A DNA stretch of 64,000 nt. Source: an uncultured bacterium (lineage in GTDB: Bacteria; Myxococcota_A; UBA9160; SMWR01). The stretch is taken from contig CALDCK010000066.1 of assembly GCA_937937315.1 (NCBI GenBank), positions 16,684-80,683 of the forward strand, read 5' to 3'. Position 1 is the first letter of the stretch; the number at the start of each line of letters is the position of its first letter. The notes under the pieces are model-generated. The model was given only the letters and a program-made list of their open reading frames with translations. It made no database searches and was not told the origin of the DNA. Both the position numbers and the translations under genes were made by a program. Below, one piece after another: positions 1,687 to 7,589 of this stretch.

Positions 1687-2136
1687 ATGACCCCCGGCGG
1701 CGAGGAGGACGCGATGGACGGCATGCGGACCGGGCTCGCACATCGTCTGCGGCGAACCGAGAAGCAGATCGTCGAGCAGCACCGTCACATCCGGGAGATC
1801 GGACGCGAGCTCGATCAGGCTGCGGAGAAGGGCCGTTCCGCCGACGTGCGGACCTGGCTCCACCGCCTCGAGGAGGCCCTGAGCGCGCACTTCGAGCTGG
1901 AGGAAGACGTGGTGTTCCCGGCGCTGCACGGCCTCGCGCCGAGCCAGGGCGACGCTCTGGAGGGTCTCGTCCGTGAGCACGGCGAGCTCCTGGTGACACT
2001 GCGTCACGTGCGGGAGGCGACGAGTGAGGCCGAGCAGGGAGACGTGTCCGACGAGCTGCCGGCGTTGCGCGATCGCCTGGGGGACCACGAGCGTCGAGAG
2101 GAGGCCCTCGTCAAGGCGGCGATGTCGCGCGGGTGA
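1687..2136 (+). CDS. Hemerythrin-like (HHE cation-binding) domain protein
   Basis: Tail of track ORF 1543..2136. The sequence has H/E-rich four-helix signatures (EQHRHI, SAHFELEEDVVFPAL, VREHGELL, GDHERREE). Start trimmed to ATG 1687; ATG 1714 is also possible. The upstream part overlaps the GH2 start region. Confidence 0.7.
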   Translation: MTPGGEEDAMDGMRTGLAHRLRRTEKQIVEQHRHIREIGRELDQAAEKGRSADVRTWLHRLEEALSAHFELEEDVVFPALHGLAPSQGDALEGLVREHGELLVTLRHVREATSEAEQGDVSDELPALRDRLGDHERREEALVKAAMSRG

Positions 2137-2246
2137 CGGCTCTGGCGACTTCCTTGGCCCCTGTCGACGGTTTCCTGCGAGGGACCTCGCTGCACGCCGA
2201 GCGGGGAGCTCGGCGCGGGCTCCCTCCCGACCTCGACCGACCTGCG

Positions 2247-2699
2247 TCAGCCCGTCGTCATGTCGATCGAGACGACGTCGTCGCGGAGGACGTCGGGATC
2301 GAGGAAGAACTCCTCCTCCTCGTCCATGTCGGCCCGGAGCGTCTCGATCAGATCCCGGATGTGTGCGGCCAGAATGACCGGCGGCTTCTGCTGCTCCTGG
2401 AGCTCCGCCACCACCCAGGCCAGGAGCTCGCGCTGCTCCCGGTGCTCCTGCTCGAAGCGTTCCGCCCGCTCCTCGCCCCAGGCATCGGACTCGCGCAGGG
2501 CCGGCACGAGATAGCGGTCCTCCCAGCGCATGTGCTCCCGTAGGATCGAGAGCAGGGTCTCCGATGCTTCGCGCAGGTCTCCTACCTGCCTCTGCTCGTC
2601 CTGGCTCAGCGCTCGCGCCAGGCTCTCGACCCGCGTGAGCCGCGCTCGCAGGCCCTCGTGGTCTCGCAGAATTCGGTGGCGGACCTCACTGGGCTGCAT
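2247..2699 (-). CDS. Hemerythrin-like (HHE) domain protein
   Basis: 150-aa ORF with RDHEGLRARL, LREHMRWEDRYLVPAL, FEQEHREQRELL and MDEEEEFFL. This spacing is typical of hemerythrin/HHE metal ligands. Codon third positions are GC-rich. Confidence 0.75.
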   Translation of the reverse strand: MQPSEVRHRILRDHEGLRARLTRVESLARALSQDEQRQVGDLREASETLLSILREHMRWEDRYLVPALRESDAWGEERAERFEQEHREQRELLAWVVAELQEQQKPPVILAAHIRDLIETLRADMDEEEEFFLDPDVLRDDVVSIDMTTG

Positions 2700-2902
2700 C
2701 CGATCCTCCTTCCTCCCACTCGGTGGGAAACCGTCCCTGAGAATCGAAGCAAGATTCGATCCAGCGCCCGAGACGTCACCCAGAGTGCGGAGAGACCTCC
2801 GTCCGGTCGCCGCGACGGGGTACGCGGACCCAGCGAGGGGTTATCTGCCCCAGGTCGAGCCGGCTTCCGGTCGAGCCCGAGGCCCAGAGATGTCCCGGGG
2901 GC

Positions 2903-2918
2903 TGGCACCGTTCGTGCA
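2903..2918 (+). promoter_or_regulatory. Sigma-54 (RpoN) -24/-12 promoter P1: TGGCACCGTTCGTGCA
   Basis: Exact TGGCAC, 5 nt, then GTGCA, so GG and GC have the canonical spacing. It lies 53 nt upstream of the CBS operon ATG (2971). The same architecture recurs at 4643-4658(-) and 6178-6193(+), and a sigma-54 activator gene is in the cluster. Confidence 0.7.
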
Positions 2919-6067: not shown

Positions 6068-6177
6068 CGCGCTCGGCCGACAGGGGCACATGAGGCAATA
6101 AGCCCCACACAGGGCGGCCGATCTGTGGCATTATACCTCGGGACCTGCACCGGAGCGTGCCTCGTTCCTTCTTCCGC

Positions 6178-6193
6178 TGGCACGCGACGTGCT
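6178..6193 (+). promoter_or_regulatory. Sigma-54 -24/-12 promoter P3: TGGCACGCGACGTGCT
   Basis: Exact TGGCAC-N5-GTGCT located 14 nt upstream of the activator ATG (6207), in the 139-nt gap after the kinase gene. Confidence 0.55.
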
Positions 6194-6206
6194 CCTCTGC
6201 GAGCCC

Positions 6207-7589
6207 ATGGAACACCGCCACACGATCCTGATCGTCGATGATGACGCCGCGATGCGGCAGATGCTCGAGTCCCTGTTCCGAGAGCAGGGCTACGCCACGG
6301 TCGAGGCCGAGTCCGCGAAGGCCGCCCTCGAGTGCGTCCGAGAGACCGAAGCCGACGTGGTCCTCTCGGACATCAAGATGCCCGGACGCTCCGGCATCGA
6401 GATGGTGGGAGACCTGCGCCGCGTTCGACCCGAGACGCCCGTCGTCCTGATGACTGCCTTCGGGAGCATCGACTCGGCCGTCGAGGCGATGCGCGCCGGG
6501 GCCTTCGACTACATCACGAAGCCCTTCGAGCCCGAGGCGGTGCTGCTCACGGTCGAGCGCGCTCTCGAGCGGCGCGCCCTCGAGGAGGAGAACCGACAGC
6601 TCCGCCGCGCGGTCGACCGCACCAGCGGGTTCGGGGACCTGATCGGTGAGAGCCCGGCAATGCGGGAGATCTTCGCGCTGATCCGCAAGGTGGCGCACAG
6701 CCGCAGCAGCGTGCTCATCACCGGCGAGAGCGGGACCGGCAAGGAGGTGGTCGCGAGGACCCTGCACTACTCGGGTCCGCGCGCCAGCAAGCCGTTCATC
6801 CCCATCAACTGCACCGCAATTCCCGAGGGCCTGCTCGAGAGCGAGCTCTTCGGGCACGTCCGCGGCGCCTTCACCGGAGCTCACGCGACGAAGCGCGGTC
6901 TGTTCGAGAAGGCCGGGGGCGGCACCCTCTTCCTCGACGAGATCGGCGACATGGGCGCCGGCCTTCAGGGCAAGCTGCTGCGGGTTCTCCAGGACCGCGA
7001 GATCCGACCCGTAGGCGGGACCCAGTCGGTCAAGGTCGACGTTCGCATCGTGGCGGCGACCAACAAGGACCTCGAGCGCGAGATCTCCGAGGGCCGCTTC
7101 CGCGAGGACCTCTACTACCGGCTCAATGTGATTCCGCTGCACATCCCGCCCCTTCGCGACCGACCCGATGACATTCCCTCCCTCGTGGATGCCTTCCTCG
7201 CCAAGCACAGCGAGGGCGGGCCGCGGACGCTCACCGGCGACGCCCTCGCGCGCCTCCAGGAGTATCCGTGGAAGGGGAACGCGCGAGAGCTCGAGAACGC
7301 CATCGAGCGTGCCCTCGCGTTGAGCGACGGAGGCGAGATCGGCGTCCGGGATCTGCCCGCCGAGGTGATCGGGAGCACGAGTCCCGAGCCGAGCGGTGAG
7401 GGATCGAGCCTGGAGGCGGTGGCGCGCTGTCGGCTCCCGCTGCGCGAGCTCGAGGACCGCTACATCGAGGAGGTCCTGCGTCAGACCGGCGGAAACAAGG
7501 TACAGGCCTCGCGAATCCTGGGCATCGATCGCAAGACCCTCTACCGCAGACGCCTCGAGGCTCCGCGGCGACAGGCCGCGAACTCGTAG
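6207..7589 (+). CDS. Sigma-54-dependent response regulator (NtrC family: REC + AAA+ sigma-54 interaction + Fis-type HTH)
   Basis: REC domain (ILIVDDD, DVVLSDIKMPG). AAA+ domain with Walker A GESGTGKE, ESELFGH and the GAFTGA loop. C-terminal HTH is NKVQASRILGIDRKTLYRR. Start trimmed from 6189 to ATG 6207 (MEHRHTILIVDDD). Confidence 0.9.
   Translation: MEHRHTILIVDDDAAMRQMLESLFREQGYATVEAESAKAALECVRETEADVVLSDIKMPGRSGIEMVGDLRRVRPETPVVLMTAFGSIDSAVEAMRAGAFDYITKPFEPEAVLLTVERALERRALEEENRQLRRAVDRTSGFGDLIGESPAMREIFALIRKVAHSRSSVLITGESGTGKEVVARTLHYSGPRASKPFIPINCTAIPEGLLESELFGHVRGAFTGAHATKRGLFEKAGGGTLFLDEIGDMGAGLQGKLLRVLQDREIRPVGGTQSVKVDVRIVAATNKDLEREISEGRFREDLYYRLNVIPLHIPPLRDRPDDIPSLVDAFLAKHSEGGPRTLTGDALARLQEYPWKGNARELENAIERALALSDGGEIGVRDLPAEVIGSTSPEPSGEGSSLEAVARCRLPLRELEDRYIEEVLRQTGGNKVQASRILGIDRKTLYRRRLEAPRRQAANS

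Follow-up and report, generated by a model that had tools for sequence, protein, structure and literature searches.

A predicted gas-response module of uncultured Myxococcota combining a globin-coupled histidine kinase, a sigma-54 activator and CBS-pair genes

We report here on a conserved gene module in a stretch of 64,000 nucleotides of DNA from an uncultured bacterium of the Myxococcota (contig CALDCK010000066.1 of assembly GCA_937937315.1, positions 16,684 to 80,683; henceforth the window). The module combines genes for a histidine kinase with an N-terminal sensor globin, an NtrC-family enhancer-binding response regulator (hereafter the activator), three stand-alone CBS-pair proteins (CBS1 to CBS3) and two hemerythrin-domain proteins (Hr1 and Hr2). 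Its domain composition, its promoter motifs and their enrichment, and the conservation and synteny observed across related loci lead us to propose that it constitutes a two-component gas-response circuit, in which the globin kinase would act through the sigma-54 activator on CBS and hemerythrin promoters; we put the probability of this reading at about 65%.

The circuit would operate in the following steps: 1) The soluble kinase, expressed from a sigma-70-type promoter of its own, would bind heme in its N-terminal sensor globin, with H96 as the proximal and Y43 as the distal residue. 2) A ligand, most likely O2, would shift the balance between its kinase and phosphatase activities, with autophosphorylation at H212. 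3) The phosphoryl group would pass directly from H212 to D55 of the adjacent activator. 4) The activator would oligomerize on GGGGC-N5-GCCCC palindromes whose centers precede the -24/-12 promoters by about 60-80 nt, and drive sigma-54 RNA polymerase at four promoters including its own. 5) The targets would be an operon of CBS1, an open reading frame (ORF) for 87 aa and CBS2, the CBS3 gene, probably Hr2, and the activator gene itself, the last providing positive feedback. Heme binding, the ligand, direct phosphotransfer, the contact between activator and palindrome and the polarity of the response are predictions made from sequence.

Gene content and conservation of the module

For comparison, related loci were retrieved by exact-protein look-up (L081-L089) and by a metagenome scan with a globin-only alignment (L090-L169). 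The resulting comparison set comprises about 85 related loci with 518 kb of non-redundant DNA, on which the module genes were mapped by tblastn. An alternative scan with a full-length-kinase alignment, via generic peptides (AHE[IV]GTPM, F[ED]PF[FY]TTK), yielded 80 unrelated histidine kinases with no protoglobin among them, and these (L001-L080) were left out. The closest relative is L081, and the kinases of the relatives that share the promoter motif are 50-89% identical to that of the window. Across this sample, the module is widely conserved in uncultured Myxococcota. In the window the whole of it lies between 1.7 and 9.1 kb, in DNA of 67-70% G+C:

1714-2136, plus strand: Hr1, hemerythrin-domain gene (Pfam PF01814, E=4.5e-16; synteny in L081, L084, L085 and L090)
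2247-2699, minus strand: Hr2, hemerythrin-domain gene (Pfam PF01814, E=3.8e-12)
2971-3441, plus strand: CBS1, stand-alone CBS-pair protein of 156 aa (Pfam PF00571, E=4.3e-27, two CBS motifs)
3442-3705, plus strand: helical 87-aa ORF between CBS1 and CBS2
3724-4161, plus strand: CBS2, stand-alone CBS-pair protein of 145 aa (Pfam PF00571, E=1.6e-27)
4171-4596, minus strand: CBS3, stand-alone CBS-pair protein of 141 aa, divergent from the kinase gene (Pfam PF00571, E=1.6e-22)
4796-6067, plus strand: globin-coupled histidine kinase of 423 aa (Pfam Protoglobin, E=1.6e-38, with HisKA and HATPase_c)
6207-7589, plus strand: activator, NtrC-family enhancer-binding response regulator (Pfam Response_reg, Sigma54_activat, E=1.6e-72, and HTH_8)
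7640-9136, plus strand: M48 peptidase gene (Pfam PF01435)

An earlier note, made by reading the letters of this DNA, had already described two hemerythrins, three stand-alone CBS-pair genes, a globin kinase and a sigma-54 activator, and the Pfam domains confirm that gene reading. CBS1, which starts at ATG 2971 behind a GGAGG Shine-Dalgarno sequence, forms one predicted operon with the 87-aa ORF and CBS2. The divergent CBS gene adjoins the kinase gene in most orthologous loci, and in the tblastn mapping Hr2 orthologs of 47-87% identity occupy the same position as in the window.

Predicted sigma-54 promoters facing the CBS and activator genes

The pattern TGGCAC-N6-TGCW occurs exactly three times in the 64 kb, against 0.08 expected occurrences, and not one of 100 shuffled sequences reaches three. 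In these three matches, and less well in a fourth, the spacing of 10 nt between the GG and GC elements and the sequence fit TGGCAC-N5-TTGCW:

2903-2918, plus strand: predicted sigma-54 promoter TGGCACCGTTCGTGCA of the CBS1/87-aa ORF/CBS2 operon, ending 52 nt before ATG 2971
4643-4658, minus strand: predicted sigma-54 promoter TGGCACGGGGGGTGCA of CBS3, 46 nt before ATG 4596
6178-6193, plus strand: predicted sigma-54 promoter TGGCACGCGACGTGCT of the activator gene, ending 13 nt before the ATG
2748-2763, minus strand: weaker sigma-54-like promoter TGGATCGAATCTTGCT of Hr2, 48 nt upstream of the Hr2 start

The scan thus upholds the original observation that three such 16-mers each face a gene start with no equal copy elsewhere in the window. 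When the relatives were scanned with a slightly looser -24/-12 pattern, 92 motifs were found in 518 kb as against 7.7 expected from Markov-1 simulations. The module genes themselves contain none of the 92, and 67 point towards orthologs of CBS3, the activator, CBS1, USP (universal stress protein), hemerythrin or CBS2 from a distance of 6-250 nt upstream. The motif precedes CBS3 in 23 cases, the activator in 21, and CBS1 in 13 loci, in which it stands 20-53 nt before the gene. The motif is kept, in place, within intergenic DNA that has otherwise diverged. The architecture first read from the window, with a globin kinase, a sigma-54 activator and -24/-12 promoters at the CBS and activator genes, holds, and the promoters are positionally conserved in the relatives.

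At the Hr2 promoter the spacing of the GG and GC elements is correct and the -12 element, TTGCT, is perfect. The identical 16-mer is present in L081, and TGGAACGTTTCTTGCT (L084) and TGGACCAGATCTTGCT (L090) stand 24-49 nt before the Hr2 orthologs. Hr2 is probably a member of the regulon. This promoter also bears on the inverted repeat ATCGAA-N6-TTCGAT, for which a role as upstream activator site (UAS) had been suggested: the repeat lies at 2743-2760, one base off the 2744-2761 given previously, and overlaps the conserved TGGATCGAATCTTGCT, which argues against that role. No sigma-54-like promoter was detected upstream of Hr1 in the window, where no -24/-12 match exceeds 5/11; a divergent membrane-protein gene has its start codon within GGCATTATAGT, which was therefore discarded as a promoter element of Hr1.

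The activator promoter has a geometry of its own. The start codon of the activator is most likely ATG 6207 (MEHRHTILIVDDD), in place of GTG 6189, and it is with this start that the third 16-mer ends only 13 nt before the coding region. The window and 8 of 21 orthologs have exactly 13 nt between the -12 element and the ATG, and for 19 of the 21 the distance falls between 6 and 16 nt. A transcript from this promoter would therefore have a leader of roughly 3 nt, i.e. it would be near-leaderless. In several relatives a GGAG lies within the gap between promoter and ATG, where it could be used only by a longer transcript starting upstream. The activator may thus have two modes of expression, basal from a leadered and induced from a leaderless transcript, or the binding of sigma-54 at this place may have another role.

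A palindromic enhancer candidate upstream of the promoters

The 190 nt preceding each promoter were searched exhaustively for inverted repeats of 4- and 5-mers with spacers of 0-12 nt, with the rest of the loci as background. GGGG-N7-CCCC ranked first (p=7e-27, 36-fold enrichment) and GGGGC-N5-GCCCC second (p=3e-22, 139-fold). Sites matching the latter at 9/10 positions or better are confined to a zone 46-133 nt upstream of TGGCAC, with most of them at 46-100 nt, and none was found at 0-40 nt or 140-300 nt. The window holds 11 sites of 9/10 in 64 kb, with one at each of its strict promoters, at 59, 79 and 79 nt:

2837-2851: candidate UAS GGGGTTATCTGCCCC, with the TGGCAC of the CBS1 promoter (2903) 59 nt away and the TGG of the Hr2 promoter (2763) 81 nt away
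2817-2831: weaker enhancer-like site GGGGTACGCGGACCC (8/10), 20 bp centre-to-centre from the site at 2837-2851
4730-4744: candidate UAS GGGGCACATGGACCC in minus-strand reading, its centre 79 nt upstream of the CBS3 promoter
6092-6106: candidate distal UAS GAGGCAATAAGCCCC, its centre 79 nt upstream of the activator promoter
6125-6139: proximal site GTGGCATTATACCTC (7/10) upstream of the activator promoter

The earlier note could find no motif common to the three promoters; in the unbiased dyad search, each of them proves to be preceded by GGGGC-N5-GCCCC. The palindrome at 2837-2851, placed between the divergent promoters of Hr2 and CBS1, could serve both. In L081 GGGGCACAAGGACCC stands at the place of GGGGCACATGGACCC, and GAGGCAATAAGCCCC has counterparts at 78-80 nt in GGGGCAATGTGCCCC (L081) and GGGGCGAATCGCCCC (L131). 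Paired sites lie 20-21 bp apart in the relatives, and the weaker second sites of the window lie 20-33 bp away. An TGTGGCATAAT-like element is kept in the upstream regions of the activator gene in L081, L084, L086, L089, L103 and L114; its function is ambiguous, as it could serve as a further UAS or form an extended -10 element.

In more distant orthologs, palindromes resembling GTGNC-N5-GNCAC take the place of GGGGC-N5-GCCCC. Examples are the GTGTCA-N3-TGACAC and GTGG-N7-CCAC palindromes of L114 (~1540-1580), L115 (~1815-1850) and L125 (~3590-3630), in which the kinase is 56-58% identical to that of the window. These altered palindromes suggest that the site has drifted with the activator lineage, and the enhancer may co-evolve with the activator, the predicted binding protein of GGGGC-N5-GCCCC.

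Two copies of GGTCGAGCC described previously as tandem repeats are indeed present (2853-2861 and 2869-2877), though not strictly in tandem, with 7 nt between them. The copies follow each other at 16 bp in the stretch that separates the enhancer from the CBS1 promoter; L081 lacks them, and no role was assigned to them.

The globin kinase and its probable pairing with the activator

The Protoglobin domain (PF11563) spans residues 5-159 of the kinase (E=1.6e-38), with matches in PDB to HemAT (1.3e-15), 7O0I (3.4e-14) and GsGCS (5.5e-13). The closest solved sensor globin, HemAT, is the aerotaxis transducer of Bacillus subtilis (PDB 1OR4); its Tyr B10 and His F8 align with residues of the kinase, whereas its output is a methyl-accepting chemotaxis domain. 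H96 and Y43 of the kinase are invariant in 16 orthologs, H96 aligning with the His of 'IASIHLRIGL' and Y43 with the Tyr of 'DAFYKNL' in HemAT, residues which we take to be the heme ligands, proximal His123 and distal Tyr70. H96 and Y43 are thus the predicted proximal and distal heme ligands, and the globin-coupled-sensor N-terminus with a candidate proximal His, as recognized in the earlier note, stands. The transmitter consists of HisKA (PF00512) and HATPase_c (PF02518), with an H212 box, 'LAHEVGTPMG', likewise invariant in the 16 orthologs; its core is nearest to ZraS among PDB entries and to AtoS/ZraS in NCBIfam.

The kinase gene appears to have a promoter of a different kind. A TTGAC(A) is conserved at a fixed distance of about 30 nt before the kinase ATG in 47 of 69 orthologous upstream regions, and has its counterpart in the window:

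4762-4767, plus strand: TTGACA, -35-like element of the kinase gene, with the ATG 28 nt downstream

This suggests a constitutive sigma-70-type promoter belonging to the kinase gene, from which a leaderless transcript would be made. A generic scan for sigma-70 promoters and terminators found no canonical -10 element for the kinase gene, and no recognizable promoters or terminators. An ACGNTN-like -10 was seen after TTGAC(A) in the kinase upstream regions (window 4762-4798; 47/69 orthologs). In one sub-lineage (L118, L122, L124, L128 and L132) a hemerythrin gene directly precedes the kinase gene, and a conserved CGGCACA-N4-CTTGCA lies 120-135 nt upstream of the hemerythrin gene; the kinase may therefore lie in a sigma-54 operon in these loci.

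The activator comprises a receiver domain (REC) with D55, an AAA+ domain with GAFTGA and HTH_8; the Pfam domains, together with the GAFTGA encoded at 6864, the sole copy in the window, agree with the REC-AAA+(GAFTGA)-HTH organization described before. Its best NCBIfam matches are AtoC, NtrC and ZraR, all of them below the equivalog cut-offs. A ZraS/AtoS-like transmitter and an AtoC/NtrC/ZraR-like regulator belong to matched partner families, and several further observations tie the two proteins together. Between them, they account for every kinase, receiver and sigma-54 AAA+ domain of the window. The activator gene is downstream of the kinase gene in 30 of the 33 loci with enough downstream sequence, and in 26 loci it follows immediately, or with only a divergent CBS gene in between. 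Identity to the respective window protein runs closely parallel for kinase and activator (r=0.95, n=21), which is evidence of co-inheritance and not of phosphotransfer.

Neighboring genes and a possible extended regulon

The M48 peptidase gene follows the activator gene only in the closest relatives, L081, L084 and L085, and one or two USP genes take its position in L086, L087, L090 and L121. With synteny limited to the closest relatives, the membership of the M48 peptidase in the module is uncertain. CBS1 and the 87-aa ORF, for which no family match was found in Pfam or NCBIfam, are separate genes in the window and in L081, and a single fused gene of 226-249 aa in L084-L088; the fusion in the more distant relatives marks the 87-aa helical segment as a C-terminal domain that can be detached from the CBS protein.

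Strict motifs in the relatives also face genes beyond those of the module. They lie before ccoN, the gene for subunit I of the cbb3 oxidase, at L125 (~545, minus strand) and L131 (~2742, minus strand), and before the gene for a ferritin-like protein of roughly 300 aa in three independent loci (L086 1841, L116 4760 and L145 5452). Further motifs face GroEL, a radical-SAM gene (L093 13100; L106 3042, the radical-SAM gene being that of L106) and a hemerythrin. The ccoN, ferritin-like, GroEL and radical-SAM genes are possible members of an extended regulon, going by these promoter motifs.

Elsewhere in the window two divergent sigma-54-like motifs, CGGCACGTCCCGTGCA (23744-23759, minus strand) and GGGCACTGGGCTTGCA (23870-23885, plus strand), were noticed, with no strong GGGGC-N5-GCCCC site between them. 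The latter ends 12 nt before a wax ester/triacylglycerol synthase (WS/DGAT) gene (23898-25307, plus strand; TIGR02946, 393 bits). Another sigma-54-like motif, GGGCACGCATCGTGCT, is located at 26130-26145 on the minus strand, with a 9/10 palindrome, GGGGCGCCGCGACCC (26175-26189), about 37 nt upstream. Molybdopterin oxidoreductases, enzymes characteristic of anaerobic respiration, are encoded on related contigs.

Relationship to the Nmp system and to other heme-based sensors

The coupling of a globin kinase to a sigma-54 activator and CBS genes had been thought undescribed, yet it had already been published for the NmpRSTU system of Myxococcus xanthus (Bretl et al. 2018, PMC6211767; McAllister et al. 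2025, PMC11841059). In that system NmpU, a protoglobin kinase homologous to AfGcHK, requires heme binding via H96 for its activity. Its phosphorylation targets are the hybrid kinase NmpS and the double receiver NmpT, and NmpR is not among them; the unphosphorylated NmpS phosphorylates the NtrC-like NmpR, so that the signal is inverted. NmpR binds GCGCA-N5-TGCGC and activates sigma-54 promoters of the CBS gene heading its own operon, of nmpU, of a USP gene, of a P-type ATPase-cbb3 oxidase operon and of hemN-hemerythrin, and the expression of this regulon rises under hypoxia (PMC6211767, PMC11841059). The related view that characterized globin kinases pair with non-sigma-54 regulators is correct for the direct phosphotransfer partner, as NmpU does not act on NmpR, and incorrect for the output of the pathway. 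In a literature search of incomplete coverage, we found a protoglobin kinase linked to an enhancer-binding protein only in the Nmp papers.

The two systems are alike in the logic of their domains and strikingly so in the content of their regulons. Both come from the same phylum, and both have a soluble Protoglobin-HisKA-HATPase kinase and an NtrC-like REC-AAA+-HTH_8 output protein acting, or predicted to act, at sigma-54 promoters through a 15-bp palindrome of 5-N5-5 form. The regulon predicted from promoters alone (the three CBS genes, Hr2 and the activator gene, with USP, hemerythrin and ccoN in relatives) resembles that of NmpR. The regulator activates its own operon in Nmp, and an activator promoter is predicted in the window. 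A CBS gene adjoins the kinase gene in Anaeromyxobacter too, as in L170, which with L171 represents a frameshift-rich Anaeromyxobacter-like Nmp locus that supports rough identities only. In L170 (9082-14475) Usp and CBS genes lie directly upstream of an NmpU homolog, and downstream follow pieces resembling NmpT and NmpS and, in divergent orientation, a gene resembling NmpR; the association of CBS and USP genes with protoglobin kinases therefore spans both families.

There are differences as well. Unlike in Nmp, the kinase gene of the window is directly followed by the activator gene, and neither the NmpS hybrid kinase nor the NmpT double receiver was found in the window or in the 518 kb of related loci; the latter yielded no second kinase and, as extra receiver matches, only partial ones where three contigs end, two of which probably stem from truncated activator genes. 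At the rough precision that L170 allows, the window receiver is about 40% identical to its Anaeromyxobacter-type NmpR, as against 55-96% among true orthologs, and orthology of the activator to NmpR is thus unsupported. The window kinase matches L170 only via the kinase core (residues 241-413), with no globin match at E=1e-3. The NmpR box GCGCA-N5-TGCGC has five 9/10 matches in the 64 kb, none near the promoters, and does not appear among the enriched dyads. Given the lack of a local NmpS or NmpT, the distant globin and receiver and the different enhancer, the window module would work like Nmp without being a member of it. It is probably a parallel, streamlined, direct two-component variant of an Nmp-like response, and not a new class of circuit.

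Comparable mixtures of likeness and difference are seen with other heme-based sensors. AfGcHK of Anaeromyxobacter sp. Fw109-5 (PDB 5OHE) is soluble and has the same order of globin sensor and kinase core and the predicted Tyr/His pocket, but its globin is only distantly related, at about 28% identity (E=3.6e-6), and its partner is a double-receiver protein (PMC6211767, PMC11841059), unlike the enhancer-binding protein of the predicted window pair. The FixL-FixJ system of rhizobia resembles the proposed circuit in that its O2 sensor kinase, likewise heme-based, acts on the regulator without an intermediate; it controls the high-affinity cbb3 oxidase, and the deoxy form of FixL is the active kinase, which is the logic the window system would need if its regulon is on in hypoxia. 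It differs in its PAS-heme sensor, its LuxR-type FixJ and the lack of sigma-54 at the first level. The DosS/DosT-DosR system of Mycobacterium tuberculosis likewise places small stress proteins under a heme kinase; among the members of the DosR regulon are USPs, Rv2626c (a CBS-pair protein) and tgs1 (a WS/DGAT), and the window has a WS/DGAT gene with a sigma-54-like motif. USPs are also named as part of a hypoxia-induced dormancy regulon in the Nmp literature (PMC11841059). The DosR parallel that had been drawn is reasonable as far as regulon content goes, and goes no further than analogy as to mechanism: DosS and DosT hold their heme in a GAF domain and show no homology to the window sensor, and the regulator is of the NarL/LuxR type and works with sigma-70-type polymerase.

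Polarity, ligand and wiring of the proposed circuit

Several points weigh against the circuit as proposed. The only characterized protoglobin kinases, AfGcHK and NmpU, do not directly phosphorylate an NtrC-type regulator (PMC6211767, PMC11841059), and as they are active in the O2-bound form, direct wiring would give a regulon that is on in the presence of O2. No RpoN-box peptide is encoded in the window, so that rpoN itself is presumed to be present from the GAFTGA activator and from taxonomy. The Hr2 promoter is off consensus at -24 (TGGATC). A strong (9/10) palindrome lies within 200 nt of only 41 of the 94 promoters, and the palindrome was first spotted by eye, before the unbiased search. 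Finally, the 13-nt gap, with the GGAG in relatives, suggests that the activator promoter perhaps does not serve simple positive autoregulation.

As to polarity, we lean somewhat towards a regulon that is switched on when O2 is scarce, by analogy with the hypoxia-induced sets to which the USP, CBS, cbb3, radical-SAM and WS/DGAT content runs parallel. With direct wiring this would require a kinase that is more active in its deoxy state, the opposite of AfGcHK and NmpU. The reverse polarity, in which the O2-bound kinase is active and, without an inverter, turns the regulon on when O2 appears, is a serious competitor of somewhat lower probability. It has in its favor that the only biochemically characterized globin-coupled kinases are O2-activated (PMC11841059), that the wiring appears direct, and that related contigs have molybdopterin oxidoreductases. 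It would suit a microaerophile or facultative anaerobe which induces hemerythrin, a high-affinity oxidase and stress proteins at the transition from anoxic to microoxic conditions. Set against it are the match of the USP, CBS, cbb3 oxidase and radical-SAM content to the sets that M. xanthus and M. tuberculosis switch on when O2 is depleted, and the low identity of the globin to AfGcHK, across which the switching logic need not be conserved.

A second alternative, which we consider unlikely, concerns the signal: the ligand could be NO, CO, H2S or the redox state of the heme, and the regulon a nitrosative or redox stress response. Several gases are commonly bound by heme sensors, DosS and DosT respond to NO, CO and H2S, and hemerythrin-domain proteins include NO- or iron-related repair proteins, to whose RIC family there are weak hits here. 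The distal Tyr and proximal His are however those of the O2 sensor HemAT, a cbb3 oxidase gene is among the promoter targets in relatives, and the Nmp precedent is one of hypoxia-dependent expression, all of which argues for O2.

Less likely again is an indirect wiring after the fashion of Nmp. The globin kinase would then phosphorylate a protein whose gene lies elsewhere in the genome, either a hybrid kinase like NmpS or a receiver like NmpT, and this protein would control the activator. The specificity of NmpU, which in M. xanthus phosphorylates NmpS and NmpT but not NmpR, and the restriction of the analysis to 64 kb of the genome leave room for it. Against this, the window has no other receiver or kinase domain and the 518 kb of orthologous loci only the three contig-end receiver fragments, the kinase and activator genes are adjacent in 26 loci and diverge together, and transmitters of the ZraS/AtoS type partner NtrC-family regulators. 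That the 16-mers are chance GC-rich matches or have a role other than as promoters, with other sigma factors transcribing the genes, is highly improbable: the G+C content of the DNA, the closeness of the third motif to its start codon and the lack of recognizable canonical sigma-70 promoters or terminators could be cited for it, but the excess of motifs in the window and in the relatives, where they fall outside the module genes, and their co-occurrence with a position-restricted palindrome and the only GAFTGA activator of the window speak decidedly against it.

Our preferred circuit of globin kinase and sigma-54 activator can be extended to a fuller picture, which we offer as tentative and as having the lesser chance of being right in all its parts: a widespread family of uncultured Myxococcota would have a globin kinase wired directly to a sigma-54 activator without an inverter, be induced by hypoxia, include the first deoxy-active globin-coupled kinase, and make a leaderless activator mRNA from a sigma-54 promoter fixed 13 nt from the ATG.

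Implications

Since Nmp uses an inverter kinase and the window family appears to be direct, either the switching logic of the sensor or the logic of the regulon must be inverted between the two. Nmp and the window family therefore provide two natural systems for testing how ligand binding is coupled to kinase output in sensor globins. The analysis also furnishes a cis-regulatory map of the module, with four promoters, a defined palindromic enhancer, a putative constitutive leaderless kinase promoter and a predicted regulon. More generally, the recurrence of the CBS, USP, hemerythrin and cbb3 set suggests that it represents a low-oxygen response that recurs across the Myxococcota.

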